A stretch of DNA of 64,000 bases from Gemmatimonadota bacterium (GCA_041482275.1 JBGPDL010000005.1:2985-66984); one strand, 5' to 3'; counted from the first letter of the stretch, positions 14,593-45,128 are shown. Notes: generated by a model from the sequence alone, not told the origin. Translations and numbers: made by a program.

Positions 14593-14631
14593 AAAAGCAA
14601 GACCCGTCCGGCCGAGCAGCCGCCAAACGGG
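14593..14631 (-). terminator. Terminator-like hairpin plus T-rich tract in the 5' leader of the YitJ-like gene (possible attenuator or riboswitch expression platform)
   Basis: The minus strand reads CCCGT-TTGGCGGCTGCTCGGCCGG-ACGGG followed by TCTTGCTTTTCC. It lies about 20 nt upstream of the ATG. A T-rich run is rare in this GC-rich window. Confidence 0.35.
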
Positions 14632-14633
14632 CT

Positions 14634-14686
14634 GGCGCTTTAGCGACTTGTTTAACGTGGCTGCAATAGGCCGCAAATCACCACGG
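14634..14686 (-). promoter_or_regulatory. Candidate H-type pseudoknot leader RNA (SAM-II/SAM-V-like?) upstream of the YitJ-like gene
   Basis: The minus strand reads CCGUGGUGAUUUGCGGCCUAUUGCAGCCACGUUAAACAAGUCGCUAAAGCGCC. Stem CGUGG/CCACG encloses a loop (UUUGCGGC) that can pair with the 3' tail GUCGC(U)AAA. Its position upstream of a methionine-cycle gene fits a SAM-responsive element. No covariance model was run. Confidence 0.3.
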
Positions 14687-14703
14687 AATCGGTTGTCGAT
14701 TGG

Positions 14704-25946: not shown

Positions 25947-27002
25947 CTACTTGGCCGCGCTGCGGAGCGCGTCGACGTCCGGCTTGACCGGGTCGTCGAG
26001 CGCCACGTGGTTGCGGTCGTGGCGCACCACGCGGGAAAACAGCGTCAGCTCGCGGTCGAACAGGAAGCGCCACAGCAATCGCGCCCATGAGGCGTGCGAG
26101 GCCAGCGACGCGTACACTTCCGGAGCGAGGGCGCGGATTCGGGGCAACCGGTTCCACGGCACCGAAGGGAAGTCATGATGCTCGTTATGGTACCCGACGT
26201 TGAACGCGAGCAGGTTGAGCGGGCCGTAGTAGCTGAACGTCTCCTGCTCGCCCGCCGAGGTGAGGTAGTGGCGCTGGATCCAGCGCGCGCCGAGGGGATG
26301 CAGGCCGATCGAGAAGAAGAGCGATAGCGCGAAGTAGACCAGCGCCTTCGGGCCGAGCACGACCCAGACCAGGGCGTCGAACGCCACCAGGACGGCCACG
26401 TTGGTCGCCGTCCAGCGGTCCCACAGGGGGACCTCTTTCACGCGCCAGGGCCGGATCGCCTGGAATACGGGGAACAGCAGCAGCCAGAGCGCCTTGCCGA
26501 GCGGCGAGCGTCCCACGAGTCGCGCCTCCCACCGGAAGGGGAGGTCGCCGTCGAGCTCGTACACGCCCTGGAACGCGTGGTGTTTGAGGTGGTACTTGGA
26601 GAACGACATGGCGCCCGGGAAGGCCTGCGGCAGGTTGGCGAGCAGCGCCGTCAGGATGTTCGGCACCCTTCGTTTGAAGACCAGCCGGTGCGCGGTCTCG
26701 TGGATCATCACGAAGAGCGCGTGGTCGGCGAACGCGCCCACGGTGTAGGCGACGGCCACCACGACCCACCACGGCTGGTCGGCCACGAGCCACGCGACGA
26801 CGATCTGGAGCGCGACGATGCCCGCCGTCCACCAGAACGTGGCGGGGTTGGGGCCGATCAGCTCCCGGATCTCAGGATGGCGCCGCAACAGTTCTCGCGT
26901 CCGCATCCGATGGGGTTCCGGAGCGGTGGAGAAGGTGAACTCGTCGCGCGGGGTCTTCACGAGCGTTTCAAAAAGTGGCAAGTGCCCATTGAGTGTAAGC
27001 AT
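25947..27002 (-). CDS. Fatty-acid-desaturase-family protein resembling sphingolipid delta4-desaturase (DEGS/Des1)
   Basis: It has three His boxes (HETAH, HLKHH, HNEHH). The N-terminal segment FTFSTAPEPHRMRTRELLRRHPEIRELIGPNP parallels the eukaryotic DEGS lipid-DES N-terminal motif (..W....PH..RR..IL..(H/Y)PEIK.L.G.(D/N)P). Start trimmed to ATG 27002. Confidence 0.8.
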   Translation of the reverse strand: MLTLNGHLPLFETLVKTPRDEFTFSTAPEPHRMRTRELLRRHPEIRELIGPNPATFWWTAGIVALQIVVAWLVADQPWWVVVAVAYTVGAFADHALFVMIHETAHRLVFKRRVPNILTALLANLPQAFPGAMSFSKYHLKHHAFQGVYELDGDLPFRWEARLVGRSPLGKALWLLLFPVFQAIRPWRVKEVPLWDRWTATNVAVLVAFDALVWVVLGPKALVYFALSLFFSIGLHPLGARWIQRHYLTSAGEQETFSYYGPLNLLAFNVGYHNEHHDFPSVPWNRLPRIRALAPEVYASLASHASWARLLWRFLFDRELTLFSRVVRHDRNHVALDDPVKPDVDALRSAAK

Positions 27003-27110
27003 ACTCGCGCACCACGTCAGGCGACACCCTGACGAGCACAATCACAGTGTGAAGGTCTGGTGGGGCGAACCTTAGACCTAGGTCGCGACGAGCTTGGTCT
27101 TGCCGGCCAG

Positions 27111-28325
27111 CTAGTCCTTGTACGGATCGAACTCGTTCTCGCCTGCCATCACGACGATGACCGGGGTAAGCGTGTGGAGCACGGTGACGGTGTCGCCCTG
27201 TGCCGCCAGCACGTCCGGCAGCCGGCGGTACGCATGCGGCGACTCGTCCAGCCCGCCGCCGCGCAGGATCACGCCTTTGGCCCCAATCCATTGCCGCAGC
27301 ATGTCCCAACTGATTTTGCCCGGTCGTATCAGCTCGCCGGTGCGGCGATTCACCTTGCCGCGCGCTTCGGTGCGGGACATCACGCGCCCCGCGCCGTGCA
27401 CCGTGGAATAGAGCGACGCGCGCTGCAGCGCCGAGTCGTGTCGCGCCCCTTCGATGATGACCGCGTCGTCTCCCATCGAGCCGCCCACGAAGCCCTTCTG
27501 GCCCGGAAACGCGGGCGTGGCGCCCTTTCTGATCACGATGTATTCCGTGCCGTCGTGGGTCTCGCGCCACGCGAAGTTGTGGTGATTGTGGACGAGCTCC
27601 ACCTCCGCGCCGCCCAGCAGCGACACGACCTTGCGCGCCACCCATTCCCGCCCCGCGTACGCATACCGGCCGGCGAGCGTCATCAGTTGCCAGTAGTCGT
27701 GTCCGAGCGGCTGCTCGAGGGCAAACAGCGTCTCGGCCTCGGGCACGCGCTCGCCCCACTGCCTCCCCTGCGACAGCGCCAGAAAGCCCGACGCGACCGT
27801 GTGACCGAAGCCCCGGCTGCCGAAATGCACGCCCACCCACACGTCGCCGTGCTCGTCCGCGAATATGTCCACGTAGTGGTTGCCGCCGCCCACGGTGCCG
27901 AGCTGATTGCGGGCCTTGGCGCGCAAGCCGTCTCGCTCATGCCGCCCGGGCACCGCGTTCCAGGCCGGATCCGCGAACAGCGGGTGATCGGTGGGCGCGT
28001 CGTCGGCGCGGTTGGTCCGGCCCATGCCGAACGAGATGGTGTGCTGGATCTCGTCCGCCAGGCGTTCGAGCTCGAGGCGCGTGAACTGATCGAGGCGCCG
28101 GTCGGTGCGGATCGCCGCGTTGCCGCACGCGATGTCGAACCCCACGCCCACGACGCTGACCCGGTTCACGTACGCCGCGACGCCGCCGATGGGCATCACA
28201 TAGCCCAGGTGGCCGTCCGCCATGAGCGCGACGCGCTCGGCGCGCGTCGCCACGTCCCGCAGCTGGGCGAGTGTCTTTTCCTCGTGTGTACCGAAGATCG
28301 CGGGCTGATTCACGCCGCTGCCCAC
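27111..28325 (-). CDS. rtcB: RtcB-family RNA 3'-phosphate/2',3'-cyclic phosphate ligase
   Basis: 404 aa with MADGHLGY, GFDI.CG and GGGNHY metal- and GMP-histidine-site motifs characteristic of RtcB. Confidence 0.92.
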   Translation of the reverse strand: MGSGVNQPAIFGTHEEKTLAQLRDVATRAERVALMADGHLGYVMPIGGVAAYVNRVSVVGVGFDIACGNAAIRTDRRLDQFTRLELERLADEIQHTISFGMGRTNRADDAPTDHPLFADPAWNAVPGRHERDGLRAKARNQLGTVGGGNHYVDIFADEHGDVWVGVHFGSRGFGHTVASGFLALSQGRQWGERVPEAETLFALEQPLGHDYWQLMTLAGRYAYAGREWVARKVVSLLGGAEVELVHNHHNFAWRETHDGTEYIVIRKGATPAFPGQKGFVGGSMGDDAVIIEGARHDSALQRASLYSTVHGAGRVMSRTEARGKVNRRTGELIRPGKISWDMLRQWIGAKGVILRGGGLDESPHAYRRLPDVLAAQGDTVTVLHTLTPVIVVMAGENEFDPYKD

Positions 28326-28338
28326 GGGAGGTGACCGG

Positions 28339-29637
28339 TTAGGAGACCCGCCGCGTCTTCCGCCGCATGAAGTCCATCAGAATGAACTGGCCGAGCGTCA
28401 TCGTGTTGGTGAAGTACGCCTTCCCGCGGCAGATCGCCGAGACTGTCTTCACGAACTCCACGAGGCTCCGGTCCCGGGCGAGCATGAAGGTGTTGATCAT
28501 GATCCCCGAGCGCCGGCACAGCGCGACCTCGCGGTAGGTGGCCTGAAGGATCTGGGGATCGAGGCCCATCGAGTTCACGTAGATGCGGCCGTCGGGAAGG
28601 GTGAGCGCCGATGGCTTGCCGTCGGTGATCATGATGATCTGGCGCATGTCCTTGCGCTGCGACATGAGCATCCGCCGCGACAGCTTGAGCCCTTCCGCCG
28701 TGTTGGTGTGATACGGCCCCACCTGGGCGCGCGCCAGCTGGGCGAGCGGGATCTCCTCGGCGGTGTCGTGGAACAGCACCACGCGCAGCGTGTCGCCCGG
28801 GAACTGGGTACGGATCAAGTGGGTGAGCGCCAGCGCCACCTTCTTGGCCGGCGTGAAGCGGTCTTCCCCGTACAGGATCATCGAGTGCGAGCAGTCGAGC
28901 ATCAGCACCGTGGCCGACGAGGAGCGGTATTCGGCCTGGTGGACCATCAGGTCGTCGTATTCGAGGTTGATCGGGACGCCGAGCCCTTCGCGCTGCAGCG
29001 CGTTGGTGAGGGTGGCGTTCACGTCGAGGTTGAGCGTGTCGCCGTACGCGTAGCGCTTGCTCACCGCCTCGGCCTCGACGCCGGTGGCGAGGTGCTCGGT
29101 GTCGTGCGCGCCGAAGCTCGACTTGCCGATGCTCCCCATGAGGTGTTTCAAGGTTCGGTAGCCGAGAAAGTCGATGCCCTTGTCGGTGAGGTTGAACTGC
29201 ACCTGCTGGGCCGCTTCCTTCGCCATCCCGCCCGGCCCGAACAGGGGCTGCTGGCCCGCGGGCAGCTTGGGCGCCTCGGTCACATTCAGGTACCCGTCTT
29301 CGATCAGCTTCTGGACGATCTTGTCGAGCAGCTCGCCCATCTGGCGCTCGAGGTCGGCGTCACGCGCTGCGTCGCCGGTCGATTCGCCGCGCAACAGCTT
29401 CAGCATCTCGGGTGTCAGCTGGCCCGAGTCCATCAGCGCTTGCAGGATCGCCTGCCGCAGCGCGTCCAGCGAGCGGTCGGATTCGTCTTCGCCGAACTCA
29501 CCCCAGAAGGGGTGTGAGTACGCGCCTCCGGCGAAGCCCGATTGGAGGAGGAAGTCGGCGAGCTGATCGAGCAAGGCCTGGAGGTTGACAGTGTCGGCCA
29601 GCTCGGGCAGGTAGCGGCTGTACGTCGTGTATTTCAT
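28339..29637 (-). CDS. vWA (MIDAS) domain protein, CoxE-like
   Basis: Start trimmed to ATG 29637 ([13 protein letters not shown]). The C-terminal vWA domain has the MIDAS-type motif MLDCSHSM and a later ITDG. The stop lies 13 nt upstream of rtcB. Confidence 0.85.
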
Positions 29638-29681
29638 TGGCTCCCTACCCGAAATATCGGCCCCGGGCGAGCTTTCCCGCA

Positions 29682-30905
29682 ATGGACGAAGCCGCGCGCG
29701 GGTCCCGCTTCGGGGCGCTCGCCTACCGTAACTTCCGGCTGTTCTTCCTGGGACAAGGCGTTTCCCTCATCGGTACGTGGATGCAGAACGTCGCCCAGGG
29801 GTGGCTCGTGCTCGAGCTCACCAACTCGCCGTTCTACGTCGGACTCGTGTCGGCGCTCGGCTCGCTCGGCGTGCTGCTCTTCACCATCTACGCCGGCGTC
29901 ATCGCGGACCGCACCAACAAGCACCGCCTGGTGATCGCCACCCAGTCGCTCTCCATGATCCCCGCGTTCGCCCTCGCCGCGCTGGTGTGGACCAAGACCG
30001 TCGCCGTGTGGCAGGTCGCCGGCTTGGCGGCGTTCCTGGGCGTGGTGAACGCGTTCGATATCCCCGCGCGCCAGGCGTTCATGGTCGAGCTCGTGAGGAA
30101 GCAGGACCTGATGAACGCGATCGCGCTCAATTCCTCCGCCTTCAACGCGGCCCGTGTGATCGGCCCCGCGGTGGCCGGCGCGCTCATCGGCGCGCTCGGC
30201 GTAGGGGCGTGCTTCTTCTTGAACGGCGTAAGCTACGTGGCGGTGATCGCCGGGTTGCTGGCGATGCGGCTCCCGCCGTACACCTCCGCGCCGCGTACCA
30301 CGTCGCTCTGGGCCGGCTTGCGGGAGGTGGTCGCGTTCATCGGCGCCGACCGCCGCGTGTCGACGGTGGTGGTGCTCACGGGGCTGCTCAGCATCTTCGG
30401 ATTTCCCTACCTCGTGATGATGCCGGTGTTCGCGCGCGACGTGTTGCATCGCGGCGTCACCGGGTACGGCGTCATGATGACGTCCGTCGGCGTCGGCGCC
30501 CTGATCGGCGCCCTCGCCGTGGCGCTGCTCGACCGCCGCATCCCGAAGGGTCCGACGCTGGTCGCCGCCGGCGCATCGTTCGGCACGCTCCTGGTTGCGT
30601 TCGCTCTGTCCCGGAGCTACGTACTCTCGCTGGCCCTGCTGGCCCTCACGGGCGGCACGATGATCGTGAACAACGCGCTCGCCAACACCACGATTCAGAC
30701 CATCGTCCCCGACGCGCTGCGCGGCCGCGTGATGGGCTTCTACGCGTTCGTGTTCGTGGGGCTGGCGCCGATCGGCGCGTTCGCGGTGGGGACGCTGGCG
30801 GAGCACATCGGCACGCCCGCCGCCGTGGCCGCCGGCGGCGCTGTGTGCATCCTCGCCGTGGCGCTCGCGGCGTGGCGAGTGCCGGAGCTGTCGCGCACGG
30901 CCTAG
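29682..30905 (+). CDS. MFS transporter (EntS/MFS_3-like)
   Basis: Start set at ATG 29682 (MDEAARGSRFGALAYRNFRLFFLGQGVSLIGTWMQ, a typical N-terminus for this subfamily). It has 12 predicted TM segments. Confidence 0.85.
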   Translation: MDEAARGSRFGALAYRNFRLFFLGQGVSLIGTWMQNVAQGWLVLELTNSPFYVGLVSALGSLGVLLFTIYAGVIADRTNKHRLVIATQSLSMIPAFALAALVWTKTVAVWQVAGLAAFLGVVNAFDIPARQAFMVELVRKQDLMNAIALNSSAFNAARVIGPAVAGALIGALGVGACFFLNGVSYVAVIAGLLAMRLPPYTSAPRTTSLWAGLREVVAFIGADRRVSTVVVLTGLLSIFGFPYLVMMPVFARDVLHRGVTGYGVMMTSVGVGALIGALAVALLDRRIPKGPTLVAAGASFGTLLVAFALSRSYVLSLALLALTGGTMIVNNALANTTIQTIVPDALRGRVMGFYAFVFVGLAPIGAFAVGTLAEHIGTPAAVAAGGAVCILAVALAAWRVPELSRTA

Positions 30906-32096
30906 CTACAGCAGGCGCCGCAGCTGCAGCGTCACCCGCACGGTGTCGGCGTCGCGCATCAGGACCAGGTGGCGCAGCGCTCCCTCGGCGCGCAACGTCT
31001 GCCGCACGTCGCTCAGACCCGCCTCGGCCGCCCGCTGGCCGTCGATCAGCAGCAGTTCGTCGCCCACCTGGATCCCGGCGTCCGCACCCGGGCTCCGCGG
31101 CACGACGTAATCGACCATCAGTTGCTTGAGTCCGGGTCCTCGGGCGATCAGCCGCAACCCGCTGCGATCGTAGTCGCAGGGCGTGCTGGCGTCGGCCGGG
31201 GGCTCGATGATGACGCGGCGGTGCGCGTAATCGACGATCAACCGCGTGTTCTCGAACACGGCGTTGCCGATCACGCCGTCGATGTCGGTGCGCCCCAAGA
31301 ACCCCTTGTTCTCACCGCCCAGGCCGGTGGTGGGCGACCGAATGCTCAAGCCCCCGAGCCGCAGCTCCTGCAGGCGCACAATCGACCCATGCAGCTCGCC
31401 GACGAGCCCGGTGCCGATCGGCGCCTCGATGGCGGGCGACACCTGCCCCAACCCGTGCTGTTCCACAAACGGGGTCGTGAGAATCAGGCACAGGCCGGAC
31501 GCCCCCGTGTCGAGCAGCAGCCGGGCCGGAATGGGCCGGCGGCCGCGAGCCTTGATGCGGGCGCGGAGCAACGGCCGGTCTGCGTCCGGCGTGAACGGCA
31601 CGGTGGTACCGGGCCCCACGTAGCGGTAGCGGGCGGGATCGAACAACCGGACGCGGTGCGCCCGGTAATCGATCTCCACCGTGAAGTGCTGGAGCACGTC
31701 GTGACCCACCAGACCGCGCTGCACGCGCCCGCTCGCTTCACTCAGACCCTGGAGCGGGTACAGGGCGGCCGGAAAGTCCAACAGCTCGACATTGCCGAGC
31801 TGCAGGCGGCGGAGCACGGCCGTCGAGGCGCTCTCGGCGATGCCGGCGGAGGCGCCCGGTGCCGCGGAAACGGCGCCGATGCTCCGGGCCCAATCGCGAT
31901 CGAACCCCGTGCGCGACAGACCGGTGTCGAACATCAGCAAGGCCGAATCGTCGTTCACTACGGCGGGCACGTAGATCGCGCCCCCGTACGCGTCGAACGG
32001 CAGCGACGCGACGGGCAGGACGCGCTGGGGCGCCAATCCGGGCCCGCACGCCGCCAGCCATGCGACCACGCCGAAAGCGCGCCGCGCGCCCCTCAC
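30906..32096 (-). CDS. Retropepsin-like aspartyl protease (two DTG lobes) with a C-terminal PDZ domain, lipoprotein
   Basis: The GTG start at 32096 overlaps the stop of the upstream kinase-like gene (GTGA). It has the signal/lipobox VVAWLAACG, two catalytic motifs (MFDTGLS and LLDTGAS), and a C-terminal PDZ (PGADAGIQVGDELLLIDG). Confidence 0.75.
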   Translation of the reverse strand: MRGARRAFGVVAWLAACGPGLAPQRVLPVASLPFDAYGGAIYVPAVVNDDSALLMFDTGLSRTGFDRDWARSIGAVSAAPGASAGIAESASTAVLRRLQLGNVELLDFPAALYPLQGLSEASGRVQRGLVGHDVLQHFTVEIDYRAHRVRLFDPARYRYVGPGTTVPFTPDADRPLLRARIKARGRRPIPARLLLDTGASGLCLILTTPFVEQHGLGQVSPAIEAPIGTGLVGELHGSIVRLQELRLGGLSIRSPTTGLGGENKGFLGRTDIDGVIGNAVFENTRLIVDYAHRRVIIEPPADASTPCDYDRSGLRLIARGPGLKQLMVDYVVPRSPGADAGIQVGDELLLIDGQRAAEAGLSDVRQTLRAEGALRHLVLMRDADTVRVTLQLRRLL

Positions 32097-32728
32097 CGCC
32101 ACCCCCGCCGCTGCGCCTCGGCGACGATCAACCGGGCCGCGCCGTCGACTCCGAGCTTCTCCGTGTTGACCACGAGATCGTAGTTCACCAGGTCCTGGCG
32201 ATGCCGCCGGTAGTAGGTCTTCACGTACTGGTCGCGCTGCCGGTCCGTTTCGTCGATCACCCTGTCTGCCTCCTCCGGGTTCACGCCCAGCCGCTCGACG
32301 GCGAGCCGCATCCGCCACGGCTTGGGGGCGACCACGTAGACGTGCAGCGCGTCCGGGCGCTGCGCCAACACGGCCTGGGCCCCTCGACCCACCAGCACGA
32401 TGCGGCCGTGGGCGGCGGCTTCGGCGATCACCCGCTCGGTCAGCTGCACGAGCGCCGCTTCGTCCTGGGCCACGCGCGGGGCGCCGGCGGACGCGATGAA
32501 CATCTCCGGCGAGGCGGCCGCGAGAGTGCGCGCGAGGCGCTCCAGCAGGCCGGGGGCCCGCTCTTCGCGCTGCGCCACCTCGTCGGCGGACAGACCGGCG
32601 CGGCGCGCCACCTGATCGACGAATTCGTTGTCGATCACGTCCCACTCGAGCTGGGTGGCCACCCGGCGGGCCACGTCGGACCCGCCGGACGCGTACTGTC
32701 GGGTGATCGTGATGACCGGCGGCGCCAT
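32093..32728 (-). CDS. Cytidylate-kinase-like family P-loop protein
   Basis: 211 aa. The N-terminus ITITRQYASGGSDVARRVA..L.W.V.D matches my recollection of the cytidylate kinase-like family (PF13189). It is tightly packed between the SPFH and protease genes. Confidence 0.7.
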   Translation of the reverse strand: MAPPVITITRQYASGGSDVARRVATQLEWDVIDNEFVDQVARRAGLSADEVAQREERAPGLLERLARTLAAASPEMFIASAGAPRVAQDEAALVQLTERVIAEAAAHGRIVLVGRGAQAVLAQRPDALHVYVVAPKPWRMRLAVERLGVNPEEADRVIDETDRQRDQYVKTYYRRHRQDLVNYDLVVNTEKLGVDGAARLIVAEAQRRGWR

Positions 32729-32729
32729 C

Positions 32730-33647
32730 TCAGGGCTTCAGGTTCTTGCGCAGCTCGCCGATGTTGAGCAGCGGCAACCCGCCCTCGGTGGGGACGAAGA
32801 TGATCAGGTTGTTCGAGGTCTTCAGGTCGTGCAGCACCTCGATCCACTGCTTGGTGAGCGCCTCGGGGGAAAGCGTCTGGTTCAGGAGTCGCTGCTGCTC
32901 GGTTTGGAGGCGGGCGACTTCCACGCGGTGGCGCTCGGTTTCGATCTGCTGTTCCTGCGCGATCTTGTTGTTGATTGCCTGCACCACCTGGGGCGGAGGC
33001 TGCAGGTCGCGGAGGAAGAACGCGGTGACCGTGGCGATCCGGAAGTTCCCGCCGCCGGCGCGGGGCCGCGTCACGAGAGCGGAGTCCACCAACCCTTCCA
33101 TGGTGTTCGCGATCTGCGTACGCTTGGAGATGTCGTTGATGGAATACTGCACCATGCCGTCGCGCACGCCCTTGCGGATGGCGTTCAGCACCGCGCCGCG
33201 AATCTGGTCCTCCTTGCCGATCTCGGTGAAGATCTTCGGTGCCTGCATCGGGTCGATCTGCCAGCGGATCGACACTTCGACATGCATGCCCATCTGCTCG
33301 CTCGAGAGCGCCTCGATCACTTCGGTCTGCTCGCCACGCGTGGGCCACTGTTCCTCGCGCGTCGAGTAGCGCTCGATGGACGACCAGGGCACCACCAGCC
33401 GGATCCCCGCGAGCAGCGGAGCCGGATCCACATAGCCGAAGGCGTGCCGCACCCCGACCTCGCCCGGGCCGATCACCACCATGCCCGACCCGATCGCGAG
33501 CAGCACGGCCACCCCGGCGGCCGCGAGGCCGACGAAGCGGAGCAGGTTGGCAATCGGGCCGGGGCGCTGTGAGCGGACGGTGGCGGCGGCTAGGAGAATG
33601 GAGAACGCGACGACGAACAGGACGGTGCCGGCGACGAGCTTACCCAT
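32730..33647 (-). CDS. SPFH/Band-7 (prohibitin/stomatin-like) membrane protein
   Basis: 305 aa with N-terminal TM helices followed by an SPFH domain (V.PGE.GV...FG.........G......P....I.....R). A C-terminal coiled-coil region is rich in Q and E. Confidence 0.85.
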   Translation of the reverse strand: MGKLVAGTVLFVVAFSILLAAATVRSQRPGPIANLLRFVGLAAAGVAVLLAIGSGMVVIGPGEVGVRHAFGYVDPAPLLAGIRLVVPWSSIERYSTREEQWPTRGEQTEVIEALSSEQMGMHVEVSIRWQIDPMQAPKIFTEIGKEDQIRGAVLNAIRKGVRDGMVQYSINDISKRTQIANTMEGLVDSALVTRPRAGGGNFRIATVTAFFLRDLQPPPQVVQAINNKIAQEQQIETERHRVEVARLQTEQQRLLNQTLSPEALTKQWIEVLHDLKTSNNLIIFVPTEGGLPLLNIGELRKNLKP

Positions 33648-33661
33648 GGAAGCCCCGGGGA

Positions 33662-33744
33662 GGTGACGGAGAGAAGATACAGCGTCATCCGTCGTCCGTT
33701 ATCTGTCGTCCGTACGTCACCGGAGCCAACCGACGCGGATGACG
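33662..33744. repeat. Heptad-repeat element (CGTCNTC / ACGGACN family) in the AAA-SPFH intergenic region, with two crossing inverted-repeat pairings
   Basis: There are five tandem heptads: CGTCATC CGTCGTC CGTTATC TGTCGTC CGTACGT (33683-33717). GGTGACG (33662-33668) pairs with CGTCACC (33715-33721). CGTCATCCG (33683-33691) pairs with CGGATGACG (33736-33744). Confidence 0.65.
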
Positions 33745-33746
33745 AA

Positions 33747-35222
33747 TTACTGAAACAGATTCGGCGCGCCCCCGCCCGTCTTTCCAAAGCCCGGTCCCTT
33801 CGGCTCGGCGCGGGCGCGCACGTAGCCGAGCTCGTCGTTGCGGGAAATGCGCTTCTCCGCCACGAGGCCCTCGAGTACCAGCTCGCAGGCGGCCACCACG
33901 GTGCCCGGGTCCTTCTTCGCGGCGAGGCCCACCCGGTCCACGAGGTCGAGCAGACCCGGCACCACGCTGAAGCCCTTGAGGCAGGTCTCCGAGCGCTCGT
34001 CCATGGACATCTTGAGGGCTCCACCCTCGTCGAACCAGTGGACGATGTCGTCCACGTTGGCGCCGCCCACGCGGGACTCGAAGGTCTTGCCCGCGGCGCG
34101 CCGGATCAGGTCCTTGGCGATCGATTCGGGACCCTGCAGCTCGCCTTCGTACTCGAGCTCGAGCTTGCCCGTGATCGCGGGCAGGGCGGCGTAGATGTCC
34201 GAGATGCGGGGCACCGCCGTCTTTTCCTTGGTGGCGATGGAGCGTCGCTCGGCGTTCGACACCACGTTCTCGAGCACGCTGATCGGCAGCCGTTGTGACA
34301 CGCCCGAGCGCCGGTCGACCCGCTTGTCCTCCCGCGCCTCGAAGGCCACGCGCTCGATCAATTCCGCAATGAAGTCGGGCAGCCTGACCGGTCGCCCCGT
34401 GCGCTCGAGCCAGGCTTCCTGGCGGGTGATCGCCGCGCCGAGATCGACGGTGTGGGGATAATGGGTCCCGATCTCCGAGCCGATGCGGTCTTTCAGCGGC
34501 GTGATGATCTTGCCGCGGGCCGTGTAGTCCTCGGGGTTGGCGGTGAACACGAGCCCCACGTCGAGGTTCAGCCGGACGGGATAGCCTTTGATCTGGACGT
34601 CCCCCTCCTGCATGATGTTGAACAACCCCACCTGGATCTTGCCGGCGAGGTCGGGCAGCTCGTTGATGGCGAAGATGCCGCGATTGGCGCGCGGCAGGAG
34701 GCCGAAATGCATCGTGAGCTCGTCGGACAGCAGATGACCGCCGCGCGCCGCCTTGATGGGGTCCACGTCGCCGATGATGTCGGCGATGGTGACGTCCGGC
34801 GTGGCGAGCTTCTCCACGAAGCGCGAGTCGCGCGGCAGCCAGGCGATCGGTGCCGCGTCGCCCCGCTCGCCCACGAGCTCGCGGCCGAACTTGGAGATCG
34901 GCGCGAACGGATTGTCGTTCACCTCGCTGCCAGCGAGAAACGGGACTTCTTCGTCGAGCAGCGTGACGAGCTGCCGCAGAATGCGGCTCTTCGCCTGCCC
35001 CCGCAGGCCGAGCAGGATGAAGTTGTGGCGCGACAGGACGGCGTTCACGAGCTGCGGGATGACGGTGTCCTCGTAGCCCACGATGCCCGGGAACAGCGGC
35101 GAGCCATTTTCGAGCAGGCAGACGAGATTCTCCCGCAGCTCGTCCTTGACGGTGCGGTGCATCCGAGCGGGACTCGCCCACTCGGTCTGTTTCAACTCGC
35201 CCAGTGTGGTCGGCTTGGTCAT
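33747..35222 (-). CDS. AAA+ ATPase of the Mg-chelatase ChlI/BchI-like type (often annotated as sigma-54-interaction-domain ATPase)
   Basis: 491 aa with Walker A-like GLRGQAKS and Walker B-like [11 protein letters not shown]. The overall ChlI-like layout has a long C-terminal helical region. Confidence 0.8.
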
Positions 35223-35232
35223 ATGGCGATAG

Positions 35233-38178
35233 TTAACCCGACCCCTCCGGCGGTGTAAAGAGTCGCAGCGCCGCGCTGCCCCACGCGGGCAGCTCGATCG
35301 TCACGCGCCCGTCCGGCGCGACGGGGATCGCCGCGCCGTTCATCTCCACGAAGTTCACGCGCCGCGCCGCGCGGAAACCGTAGGCCGCGGGCCAGACGCT
35401 CACCAGGCGGGTCACACCCGCGACGTCGAGAAGCTTTACGACGGCGCCCGTGCGGTCGTCCGCCGGCTTGACGCCCACCACCGCGACGCCAGGATCCGCG
35501 ATGAATAACCCCGAGTCCTTGCGGGCGAGCGCGCCGGAGCCCGCGCTCGCGTACGCGTCGCTCACGTAGAGCGGGTCGCACGCCGCCCAGCCCCGCCGCA
35601 CCGGCTCGGCGCGGTCTCCGCCCGGCCCGAGCGACGAGATGCGGAAGCGGAACGCGAGCTCGCCGCCCTGGCGGGCCGCGAAGTTGGTGGGCCAGTAGTT
35701 GTGCAACACGTACGCGAACAGCGTGCCGTCGGGCGCGAGCGTGCGCCGCCACTGGCCCCGGAAGATGTCGTTCAGCGTGAAGAGCGGCGTGTCGGGTGCG
35801 CTCCAGAGGATCCCATCCGTCGCGTCGTGCAGCCACACCCAGTGGGCGTGGCAGTACCAATCCCGGCAGCTGCCGGGCTGTTGGTCGCGCTCCACGGTCA
35901 TCCGCCCGAGGGGCACCTCCACATCCACCGTCGGCTTCGCGAGCGCGAACGGAAACGCGACGTACAGGGCTTCCTTGTCGAGCGTGGCGGGCTTGGCGAC
36001 GCGGTTCTCGATGTCCATCCAGGGGAGCTCGTCGTACAGGGTCACGACGGTCGTGACGCTCGTGCAGCCCTGCAGGCGGCGCTCGATGACGAGACGGGTC
36101 CCGATGCCCGGGAGGCGCTCGCGGCGCGCCGACGCGAGCTCGGCCTGGCTCACCGCAAGATCGGGAACAGTGCGCAGCTCGTCGCGGGCGCGGCCGGTCC
36201 AGAGGGCGCTATGCGCTCCCCCTTGCACGTACGCGAGCTGATTCAGCCCGGACCAGCCGGCGGGTCGGACGCGCTCCCTGCCGTCTCCCGTCGTGAGCGA
36301 GCGGATGGCGCCGCTCGCCGGGTCGAGCACCACGTGAAATCCCCCGGCCTGGGCCTCGAGTGCCGTGCCGTCGTCCCGAGGCGGATTCGGCGGCCGCTCG
36401 GTTTCCGCGACCGCCAGGTAACCGAGCGCCGGTACGTCCCGCGCCACCACGAGCGCCGAGCCGTCGGGCAGGTCCACCGCGGGCCAGTCGCGCCCGTCGA
36501 GCGCCAGCCGGCGACCGGCCCCGCCCGGCACCTGCAGCACGTCGCTCCGCACCCAGGTCGAGGCGTTGAACACGACCCGGCCACCGCCGGCCCCCGTGCT
36601 GAGGCCGATCCGGAGCAGCGCGGCCGCGATCTGGGTATCGGCGACGGCGGCGGCGCCGTCCAGCAGGCGCCGCTTGTACTCCCACTGCGCCGCCGCCTGC
36701 GGGCCGTCGGGGTCCGAGACGCTGGCTGCCGATCCCCAAGTGTGCTCTCCGAACAGCAGCAGGGCGCGCCACATGCGGCGGCGCTCCTCGGCCCGCCGTG
36801 CGATCCGCTGCGCCGCGCCTGCGGGGCGCGGCTCGGTGCGCTCGTCCCACAATGCGAGCAGCTCCGCCGCCCGGGCGGCGAGCTGAGTGGCCCGGAAGCG
36901 CGCCAGCTCGGCAGCGGTCGAGGCGGCACCATCCTCGCGGTAGCACCCCGTGTCGCCGCGTCGCACGGGGAGCTTGGCGCCCCAGCGCCGCTCCACCTCG
37001 CGGAAGAAGTCCTCAGGCCGCGCCGCCACCAGCCGGGGATACGCGTAGCGCCGGTTGAACTCGTTCACATTCGCGACCACGGCTTCGTCCACCAGGCCGT
37101 TATCGCCCGCCGCGCCCCACAACAGCGCCACATCGTACGGGTAGCCGGGAGAAAGGAGGACGGGGTGCGCGAGCAGCCACTCGGAGAGCCGCTGCGCCAT
37201 CTCCGCCGGGCCGATGTCGAAGCCGAAGCGCGGCCCGTCGGTGTACTGGTCGGACCGCCAGTGCAACACGCGGCTCCCGTCGGGTCCCTCCCACCAGTAG
37301 AGCTGGGGGTACGCGGTCCACTCGCCCGCGAGCTGGGCGCGTGCCGCGTCGGCGGGCGACAGCAGCGGTGCGGCGCGCTCCGGATTGACGCCGCTCGCCA
37401 AATAGCGCACGCCGCTCGCTGCGAGCAGGGAGGGGAACGTGAGCGTCTGCCCGGGCACGTCGGCGCTGAGGGCGGCGAGGTAGCCGAGTCCCTGCTCACG
37501 CGCGAACAGGCCGGCGGGCCACACGGCGCGCGCCAGCGTCTCGTGATCGAGGATTCCCGTCAAGAGGTGCGCGAACAGGGGGGAGAAGCCGATCCGGCCG
37601 GCACGCATCGCCTGCGCCAACGCTTGGCCGGCCGCCGGGGCGCGGGTTTCGACGTAGGAGATCACCTGCAGCGCGCAGTCCGCCGTCCAGTGGAACTCCG
37701 GGTGGGCGGGCAATCGGGCCAGCGCGGCGTCCAGGTTGGCGCGGTGGATCTCGAGCGTCCGCTCCTGTAGATCGGTGCGCCCCACGTCAGTGTGACTCGA
37801 CGCGATCCAGTACAGGGTCCAACGTCGCGGCGGGGCGAGCCGCACGCGCTGGCGCGCGACGCGCTGCTTCCCGACCTCGACCTCGATTTGGAACTCGGTC
37901 GCCCGGGACAGCGGTACCCAGACTTCGCCGGCGAGTCCCGCGTCGCCGGGGAGCAGTCCAGCCGTGCCGACGAGCGTGCCGCGGTAGTCGGTGACGCGGG
38001 CGCGGGCAGCGGGCGCGTCGAGGCCGGTGACGGCGACGCGCACCAGGTTGTTACGGCCGTCGGGCTGCTGGTACAGCGCGGTCGGGCGCGCTGCGATGAG
38101 AACCGGGGGCGTGGCGCGGTGCCGTCGCACGAGCGGCAGCGTGCCGAGCCACGCGACGAAGCTGCGGCGGTCGGTCAT
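35233..38178 (-). CDS. Large secreted glycoside-hydrolase-like protein (GH38 alpha-mannosidase-like N-terminal domain suspected), Tat signal
   Basis: 981 aa with a twin-arginine N-terminus [12 protein letters not shown]. The SSHTDVG metal-site-like motif and downstream pattern are reminiscent of GH38-type domains. The family assignment is tentative. Confidence 0.5.
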
Positions 38179-44445: not shown

Positions 44446-45128
44446 GTGGCCTGCTCAATCTCAGGGTGGCGGCCGCCGCGCCCGTTGCCCCCCGCCCGCC
44501 GGCGCACGACGGCGCGGCGCTCGGCATCGGCGGCCAGCGGGCCCAAGAGCGCCGCGAGCTGGCGCAGCCGCGCGCTCGTGCTCCGGCCGGTGTGCAGCGC
44601 TCGCTTCACATCGGGATCGAGCTCCAGCGCCGCCGCCACCTGGAACGACAGGAGCGTGGGGTCGCCGGGCAGCGAGATGTCCTCGTCTTCGCGCTCGGTC
44701 AAGACGCCGAGCGCCTGTGCGAGGCGCCCGAAGCCGTCGCGCACATCGGCGGCGAGCGTGCCTGCTTCCGCGGCGTCGACCGGGTCGTCGTCGAATTCCT
44801 CCACTTCGGCCACGCGGTACGGCTGCGGACCCGCGATCCAGCGGCACACGACGAAGCGGCGCTCTCCCACCGTGACGATGTTGGCGCATCCGTCGGGGAG
44901 CGGCTCACTCGAGCGGATCAGCGCCACGCAACCGACATCTCCCGGACTAGGGCCGGGATCCGCGCCCGGCGCTCGGTCCGCGGCGACGTACGCGATCCCG
45001 AGCCGCCGGTCCGCCGCGAGACAGTCCTGGAGTAGCTGGCGGTAGCGGGGCTCGAAGATGTGCAACGGCTGGGGGGCGCCCGGAAACAGGACGATCGGCA
45101 ACGGAAAAATTGGGAGCTCGCGCGGCAT
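44442..45128 (-). CDS. LON substrate-binding (LON-N) domain protein
   Basis: Start trimmed to ATG 45128 (MPRELPIFPLPIVLFPG...LHIFEPRYR, the LON N-terminal domain signature). There is no ATPase or protease domain. The stop overlaps the glcD start. Confidence 0.8.
   Translation of the reverse strand: MPRELPIFPLPIVLFPGAPQPLHIFEPRYRQLLQDCLAADRRLGIAYVAADRAPGADPGPSPGDVGCVALIRSSEPLPDGCANIVTVGERRFVVCRWIAGPQPYRVAEVEEFDDDPVDAAEAGTLAADVRDGFGRLAQALGVLTEREDEDISLPGDPTLLSFQVAAALELDPDVKRALHTGRSTSARLRQLAALLGPLAADAERRAVVRRRAGGNGRGGRHPEIEQAT

Follow-up and report, generated by a model that had tools for sequence, protein, structure and literature searches.

Do the genes that surround an RNA ligase gene in a Gemmatimonadota genome form one RNA-repair system, or are they neighbors with separate histories? 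The locus that raises this question lies at positions 27111 to 35222 of a 64,000-nucleotide (nt) stretch (GCA_041482275.1 JBGPDL010000005.1:2985-66984; hereafter, the window), in a high-GC Gemmatimonadales genome that is 95% complete. It encodes an RtcB-family RNA ligase, a vWA protein, a ChlI-like AAA+ ATPase, an SPFH/Band-7 protein, a cytidylate-kinase-like protein, a retropepsin-PDZ lipoprotein and, on the opposite strand, an MFS transporter. A first-pass annotation of the window had proposed an RtcB-centered RNA-repair or conflict module, and had also suggested that the ATPase gene and the distant vWA gene were an ancestral pair split by four inserted genes. As described below, the locus is in all probability not one system. 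Its core would be a split AAA+/vWA pair of the Mycobacterium tuberculosis Rv0958/Rv0959 type, with rtcB as a passenger that arrived by chance.

The AAA+ and vWA genes form a co-inherited pair

Genes were called by Pfam and NCBIfam profile scans of the window proteins, and every gene listed by the first-pass annotation was present, at the coordinates given in Table 1. To these we added a survey of roughly 182 loci (about 180) from Gemmatimonadota, Acidobacteriota, two metagenome-assembled genomes (MAGs) labelled Verrucomicrobiia and metagenome contigs, onto which the window proteins were mapped by tblastn. The survey drew 20 loci from diverse Gemmatimonadota genomes, 80 from named genomes retrieved with a 7-sequence vWA alignment as the query, two from Blastocatellia, and 80 from metagenomes, the last set representing a divergent vWA subfamily; one genome of the same genus as the window genome, G035, was sampled twice. 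A profile search with a diverse alignment returned Blastocatellia matches only. The presence and absence of genes were counted over 121 Gemmatimonadota genomes.

An AAA+ gene was found inside 136 of the roughly 182 loci, on the same strand as the vWA gene in every case (136/136) and less than 1 kb from it in 88. In Acidobacteriota, in Longimicrobiales, in some Gemmatimonadales and in the divergent metagenomic subfamily, the two genes stand side by side in the same orientation. As seen in Terriglobia, Blastocatellia, the two Verrucomicrobiia-labelled MAGs and some Gemmatimonadota, the AAA+ gene precedes the vWA gene with gaps of 1 nt to a few hundred nucleotides, while the divergent subfamily (33 to 47% identical) exhibits both orders, AAA-vWA and vWA-AAA.

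The two genes are also inherited together. Both were present in 81 of the 121 genomes and both were missing from 37; the AAA+ gene occurred by itself in 3, two of them at contig ends, and the vWA gene by itself in none (Fisher p = 6e-28). This co-occurrence holds even where the genes are separated by 16 to 76 kb or lie on different contigs; in the complete genome G067, the distance between them is 7.6 kb. The vWA proteins are 95 to 96% identical within the genus, 60 to 66% within the class and 54 to 58% identical to those of Acidobacteriota, and the identity of both the AAA+ and the vWA proteins declines smoothly with taxonomic distance. Because identity tracks taxonomy in this way, the inheritance of the pair appears to be vertical and housekeeping-like, unlike that of conflict systems. 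The AAA+ gene is single copy in the window genome. Overall, the adjacency, the co-inheritance and the nested insertions described below strongly support the earlier suggestion of an ancestral pair that was later split.

We also observed two genomes of one genus (G053, contig C4, and G083, contig C2) in which both genes of the pair have been lost and the genes for the kinase-like protein and for a stand-alone Lon N-terminal domain protein remain with about 6 kb between them, an arrangement that would result from deletion of the pair in place.

The pair resembles MIDAS-dependent AAA+ machines

The true start of the vWA gene is the ATG that gives a protein of 432 residues, as in all relatives. 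Precomputed Pfam annotation places PF27098 ("Rv0959_3rd") and VWA_2 on this protein, and the former domain makes it a member of the family that takes its name from M. tuberculosis Rv0959. The residues of its metal-ion-dependent adhesion site (MIDAS), D248-x-S250-x-S252, are invariant in every alignment, and T311 and D339 are invariant in the family alignment. An AlphaFold2 model of the protein has a mean predicted local distance difference test score (pLDDT) of 64, being confident in the vWA half and unreliable in the N-terminal half. The best fold matches of the vWA half in the PDB were to the NorD vWA domain in NorQD complexes; given the unreliable N-terminal half, these matches speak for the vWA half alone. 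Residues 168 to 204 have a pLDDT below 50 and yet are among the most conserved of the protein, with G176, H178, T180, T185, G186, E188, Y196 and G199 invariant. A possible role of this segment is docking, either to the ATPase or to the MIDAS site.

For the ATPase, the closest solved relatives are ChlI/BchI (4e-7 with a single sequence and 2.7e-8 with a profile), and the alignment with ChlI spans Walker A, Walker B, sensor 1 and the Arg finger. Its variant motifs are GLRGQAKS in Walker A and AINE in Walker B, both unchanged across 29 sequences: Ala replaces the second Gly of Walker A, and Asn replaces Asp in a Walker B of the form hhhhNE in every member. In the acidobacterial ATPases, the region between Walker A and Walker B additionally contains the Cys-rich sequence GCEIHDNPYxPICxxC, which has been lost in Gemmatimonadota.

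In M. tuberculosis, Rv0958 is the neighbor of Rv0959 and is described as a "possible magnesium chelatase". The window pair is like Rv0958/Rv0959 (MSMEG_5512 and its neighbor) in that the vWA protein shares PF27098 and VWA_2 and the ATPase is of the same ChlI-like type, with the two genes adjacent in most lineages; we infer that the window ATPase is orthologous to Rv0958. A difference lies in length, since vWA relatives of about 670 to 690 residues, the size of Rv0959, possess a long extra N-terminal region compared with the 432 residues of the window protein; these longer relatives may be actinobacterial. A literature search returned no functional study of the Rv0958/Rv0959-type family. The single experimental note that it found concerns MSMEG_5512, which was recovered along with cross-linked RNA polymerase and was not associated with DNA (PMC7092591).

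Several characterized systems offer a closer view of what such a pair might do. NorQ/NorD, CbbQ/CbbO, CoxD/CoxE, RavA/ViaA and BchI/BchD are likewise two-gene units that combine an AAA+ ring ATPase, as the window ATPase is predicted to be, with a vWA protein that has an intact MIDAS. Adjacency and strict co-occurrence are shared with the MoxR-type AAA+/vWA pairs and with BchI/BchD. The window vWA model is nearest to NorD, and the ATPase is nearest in sequence to BchI/ChlI. Nevertheless, the window-type pair differs from these systems in having no neighboring gene for a nitric oxide reductase, Rubisco, carbon monoxide dehydrogenase or chelatase H subunit, in its Walker A (GxxGxAKS) and Walker B (hhhhNE) motifs, in the N-terminal region of its vWA protein (PF27098) with the conserved, unmodelled segment 168 to 204, and in a putatively ancestral link to a Lon N-domain protein. 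Apart from the latter, no client gene was found conserved beside the pair in the surveyed loci. By analogy with these systems, the pair is most likely an AAA+/MIDAS remodelling machine of the kind represented by NorQ/NorD or BchI/BchD.

Genes between the pair were added stepwise

Table 1. Coordinates (numbered from the first letter of the window), strand and basis of assignment for the features discussed
Feature	Position	Strand	Basis
RtcB-family RNA ligase, 404 residues	27111-28325	-	PF01139, 7.7e-65
Spacer of 13 nt, vWA stop to rtcB GTG	28326-28338	-	Read from the sequence; no terminator
vWA/MIDAS protein, Rv0959 type, 432 residues	28339-29637	-	VWA_2, 5e-8; PF27098 "Rv0959_3rd"
MFS_3 transporter	29637-30905	+	PF05977, 9e-66; TIGR00900, 1e-58
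Lipoprotein with double retropepsin and C-terminal PDZ	30906 to ~32096	-	Asp_protease_2, PDZ_6
Cytidylate_kin2 protein	32093-32728	-	PF13189, 7e-43
Band_7/SPFH protein, membrane anchored	32730-33647	-	PF01145, 2.4e-20; N-terminal hydrophobic segment
ChlI/BchI-clade AAA+ ATPase, Rv0958 type, 491 residues	33747-35222	-	Weak ChlI/BchD/cobaltochelatase matches
Stand-alone Lon N-terminal (substrate-binding) domain protein	44562-45116	-	PF02190, 1.6e-26

When the window proteins were mapped onto the loci, the insertions between the AAA+ and vWA genes proved to be nested by clade. Most Gemmatimonadales loci have the MFS gene on the opposite strand between the two, and Acidobacteriota lack it; judging by this distribution, the MFS gene, present in families f1 and f2, is the oldest insertion between the pair. 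The open reading frames (ORFs) of the vWA and MFS genes diverge at 29635-29640 with starts within a few bases of each other, and the same is seen in G035. Since these divergent starts nearly touch, either the vWA promoter lies inside the MFS gene or the vWA gene is read from upstream, antisense through the MFS gene.

The remaining insertions have a narrower distribution. An SPFH gene between the AAA+ and kinase-like genes was found only in family f1, and there only in some of the loci and genera. The gene for the retropepsin-PDZ protein is confined to the window genus (loci L002/L023, L022 and L120), and other genera have no room for it between the MFS and kinase-like genes. Its ORF of 579 residues begins with about 180 residues of GC-rich read-through, the real start preceding the lipobox WLAAC. 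The SPFH, kinase-like and lipoprotein-protease genes abut or overlap, with a 1-nt gap and a 4-nt overlap, and together resemble a unit associated with the envelope.

Other lineages have their own insertions. In Longimicrobiales, a MutY-like gene stands between the AAA+ and vWA genes, and in one Blastocatellia genome (L128, 9547-9963) an encapsulated-ferritin-like gene was inserted independently at the same junction.

The cytidylate-kinase-like gene has the closest association with the ATPase gene. In families f1, f2 and f3 it is the next gene 3' of the AAA+ gene, with gaps down to 28 nt, and this adjacency is kept even where the vWA gene stands at a distance of 18 to 76 kb or belongs to a different contig (G047, G074, G052, G036, G072 and G104). 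Such persistence could mean that the AAA+ and kinase-like proteins, together with the SPFH protein in the window family, constitute a functional module of their own in which the vWA protein is one of several partners. We consider this unlikely. The orientation of the kinase-like gene relative to the AAA+ gene flips between genera, and the gene is absent from all Acidobacteriota loci, from the metagenome-subfamily loci and from many Gemmatimonadota genomes that carry the pair, while 4 genomes have it without the pair; the SPFH gene, for its part, occurs in some genera only.

A further gene of interest is that for the stand-alone Lon N-terminal domain protein. In most Terriglobia loci, the gene next to the AAA+ gene on its upstream side encodes a homolog (e.g., L102, 7775-8386, and L103, 7624-8283). 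The window gene is 9.3 kb upstream of the AAA+ gene on the same strand, and in 25 Gemmatimonadales genomes the distance is 1.5 to 21 kb (median, 6.7 kb), again upstream and on the same strand. This conserved placement suggests an ancestral arrangement of three genes, Lon-N/AAA+/vWA.

Elsewhere in the window, positions 14620-14694 (minus strand) match the Rfam SAM_alpha riboswitch with 53 bits against a cut-off of 36, in a Gemmatimonadales genome, although this family is named for Alphaproteobacteria.

The placement of rtcB beside the vWA gene is lineage specific

The active site of the RtcB protein itself appears to be intact. In an alignment with Pyrococcus horikoshii RtcB, its metal-ligand and guanylylation motifs are intact (DIACG, GGGNHY, HFGSRGFGH, HNHHN and HGAGR), and the catalytic Cys/His residues and HGAGR align as would be expected of the RNA ligase of RtcB-centered repair systems. 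The vWA stop codon (28339-28341) is separated from the rtcB GTG start (28325) by 13 nt, as the first-pass annotation had stated and as reading the sequence at 28325-28341 bears out. Since this gap contains no terminator-like site, rtcB and the vWA gene are probably co-transcribed in the window genome.

Nevertheless, among the surveyed loci rtcB stands 3' of the vWA gene only in the window genome (G000) and in G035. A third genome of the genus, G041, has at this position genes for a metallo-beta-lactamase-fold protein, a peroxiredoxin, an APH-type kinase and a glycosidase, and no rtcB; the slot 3' of the vWA gene is variable in gene content. In the 121-genome sample, orthologs of the window RtcB that are 55 to 88% identical were found in about 20 other genomes, all of them on separate contigs or hundreds of kilobases from the vWA gene, and 3 genomes have a window-type RtcB without the AAA+/vWA pair. 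RtcB orthologs are more frequent in genomes with the pair (20/81) than in those without it (3/37; p = 0.045), a difference to which we give no weight because the genomes are phylogenetically non-independent.

In 3 genomes only decayed RtcB fragments remain (G119, contig C82, 40574-41427; G045, C2, 815291-815491; G064, C1, 1104739-1105959), the orthologs being frameshifted fragments or containing in-frame stop codons. Such decay would fit an accessory gene that is prone to loss. In G041 and in another genus (L112, 9126-10433; L114, L119 and L121), the gene directly 5' of the RtcB ortholog encodes a class II (Asp/Asn/Lys-type) aminoacyl-tRNA synthetase, and a BamB-like gene, RecG and FtsY are nearby. 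Besides this synthetase context, no RtcB neighbor common across the phylum was seen in the ortholog loci inspected, and no SPFH gene was found near RtcB orthologs elsewhere.

The window genome contains a second RtcB, encoded on contig C18 (locus L125, 6532-8371) directly after an archease gene; the flanking genes encode universal stress proteins and a P-type ATPase. This archease-linked copy scores 571 bits against the family profile and the window RtcB 215; because it matches the profile far better, the window RtcB is regarded as the second, divergent paralog. Overall, the window rtcB is most probably a chance neighbor of the vWA gene, a patchily distributed second paralog that moves between genomic contexts.

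Two readings give the adjacency more weight. In the first, rtcB was recently captured into the vWA transcription unit of this lineage and is co-regulated with it, e.g., in a shared stress response, with no complex being formed. The gaps of 13 nt in the window and 25 nt in G035, with no terminator, are consistent with such a capture, and the arrangement is of some age, since the two genomes that share it encode RtcB proteins with no more than 88% identity. The absence of rtcB from this position in G041 and the variability of the slot argue against it, and we regard this recruitment as decidedly unlikely.

In the second reading, the pair and the Lon N-domain protein would together be a widespread, vertically inherited machine for remodelling proteins or ribonucleoproteins, a split, protease-less counterpart of Lon whose client belongs to the gene-expression apparatus, and the rtcB adjacency would reflect a real functional tie. 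Such a client is hinted at weakly by the co-purification of the mycobacterial ATPase with RNA polymerase and by the capture of an RNA ligase into the vWA transcript. We hold this to be very unlikely, and nothing links the client of the pair to RNA ends.

An RNA-repair system at the locus is not supported

The module proposed by the first-pass annotation would unite the RtcB ligase with a kinase-like end modifier and with SPFH and vWA scaffolds, as in Rsr/Y-RNA or Band-7/b7a-tRNA systems. Burroughs and Aravind reportedly described in 2016 RtcB RNA-repair operons of the types rtcBA-rtcR, rsr-Y RNA-rtcB, and Band-7 with b7a-tRNA and RtcB. The domain inventory of the window fits this "syntax" superficially: it has an RtcB that appears catalytically intact, Band-7 and vWA proteins encoded within 7 kb, and the short vWA-rtcB gap. 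Moreover, RtcB is encoded beside Band-7 proteins and a tRNA-like RNA in some bacteria, according to a preprint that cites Burroughs and Aravind (bioRxiv 10.1101/312249).

The details of the locus speak against this proposal. It had been expected that, if the genes were linked to rtcB only in this genome, the juxtaposition would be due to chance, and this is in substance what the survey found, with the single same-genus exception of G035; RtcB orthologs elsewhere lie in unrelated contexts, so the neighborhood is not conserved as it is in the known operons. As to an RNA partner, the first-pass annotation had seen no tRNA-like or Y-RNA-like gene by eye, in agreement with the scans. ARAGORN found no tRNA in the 64-kb window, and Rfam gave no match at gathering score near the locus and none at E <= 1 in 26800-35400, although a new RNA class would escape such scans. 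Neither RtcA, whose lack had been remarked on before, nor a TROVE protein was found in the 95%-complete genome, and the locus also has no RtcR. The observation that archease is lacking is true of the locus and false of the genome, because archease adjoins the second RtcB on another contig; the known operons differ from the window locus in this respect as well.

The other proposed parts are equally ill placed. No canonical end-modifying kinase, nor any other RNA-end-modifying enzyme of the RtcA, Pnkp/Clp1 or Hen1 type, adjoins rtcB. The only kinase-fold protein is a typical PF13189 member, encoded 3.8 kb away beyond an opposite-strand gene; its P-loop, YASGGSD, has no Walker A lysine, which makes it a poor candidate for an RNA 5' kinase. 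No scaffold gene with a cognate RNA was found beside the ligase gene: the Band-7 gene is separated from rtcB by 4.4 kb, which include the opposite-strand gene, and its membrane-anchored product is tightly coupled to the lipoprotein protease. PADLOC returned no match for the RtcB, vWA, AAA+, SPFH or kinase-like protein, and the pair is vertically inherited and slow evolving, unlike conflict systems. The RNA-repair or conflict module is not supported by these results, and its probability is slight. An Rsr/Y-RNA system was rejected since the genome has no TROVE protein, and an anti-phage defense system was rejected in view of the lack of PADLOC matches and of a pair identity that tracks taxonomy.

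That the pair is a genuine metal chelatase, with the two proteins as I and D subunits of a Mg- or Co-chelatase, was also rejected and has next to no probability: databases name the ATPase "magnesium chelatase (subunit I)" and its nearest solved relatives are ChlI/BchI, but it scores 24 to 29 bits against NCBIfam cut-offs of 467 to 779, the vWA protein does not have the AAA-like N-terminal half of BchD/ChlD, and no CobN/BchH-type large subunit is encoded, PF02514 (BchH/ChlH/CobN) having no match in the 95%-complete genome while control genomes matched as expected.

Discussion

We favor the reading in which a split AAA+/vWA pair is the core of the locus and rtcB a passenger. In this reading, the AAA+ and vWA genes were ancestrally adjacent and co-oriented, and were then separated in Gemmatimonadales by successive insertions while still being co-inherited: the opposite-strand MFS exporter and the cytidylate-kinase-like gene, then the SPFH gene, then the retropepsin-PDZ lipoprotein gene. 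In the lineage of the window genome and one sister genome, rtcB landed 3' of the vWA gene and is probably expressed from the transcript of that gene. If the pair works as BchI/BchD, NorQ/NorD, CbbQ/CbbO and CoxD/CoxE do, the ATPase would form a hexameric ring that engages the vWA protein as its adaptor; the metal site of the MIDAS would grip an acidic residue of a client, and the ring would remodel or move this client using ATP. The stand-alone Lon N-domain protein may deliver or recognize the client.

Several points weigh against this reading. The proposed mechanism of the pair is drawn from analogy, and since Asn replaces Asp in the Walker B motif of every member, the properties of the ATPase may differ from those of ChlI. 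The AlphaFold2 model of the ATPase had a pLDDT below 50 over the conserved core (residues 137 to 250) and gave no Foldseek match at E <= 0.001, and it was discarded. The position of the kinase-like gene beside the AAA+ gene across three families, which we take as old synteny, could instead reflect a functional tie. Likewise, the short, terminator-free gap makes co-expression of rtcB with the vWA gene probable, and a recent functional recruitment of rtcB may have taken place. Finally, the loci beyond Gemmatimonadota and Acidobacteriota are metagenome contigs without taxonomy.

What these results mean is twofold. Because the juxtaposition with rtcB is lineage specific, the locus is unimportant as a candidate for RNA repair. 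At the same time, the analysis marks out an AAA+/vWA unit of two genes whose conservation extends from Gemmatimonadota to Acidobacteriota; this unit belongs to a catalogued, uncharacterized family and goes under the incorrect names "magnesium chelatase" or "Ca-activated chloride channel homolog". The analysis also illustrates that functional partners can remain strictly co-inherited though many kilobases apart, which calls for caution, in both directions, when function is predicted from gene neighborhood. The Lon N-domain protein is a possible third component of this unit and would provide an experimental handle on the pair.

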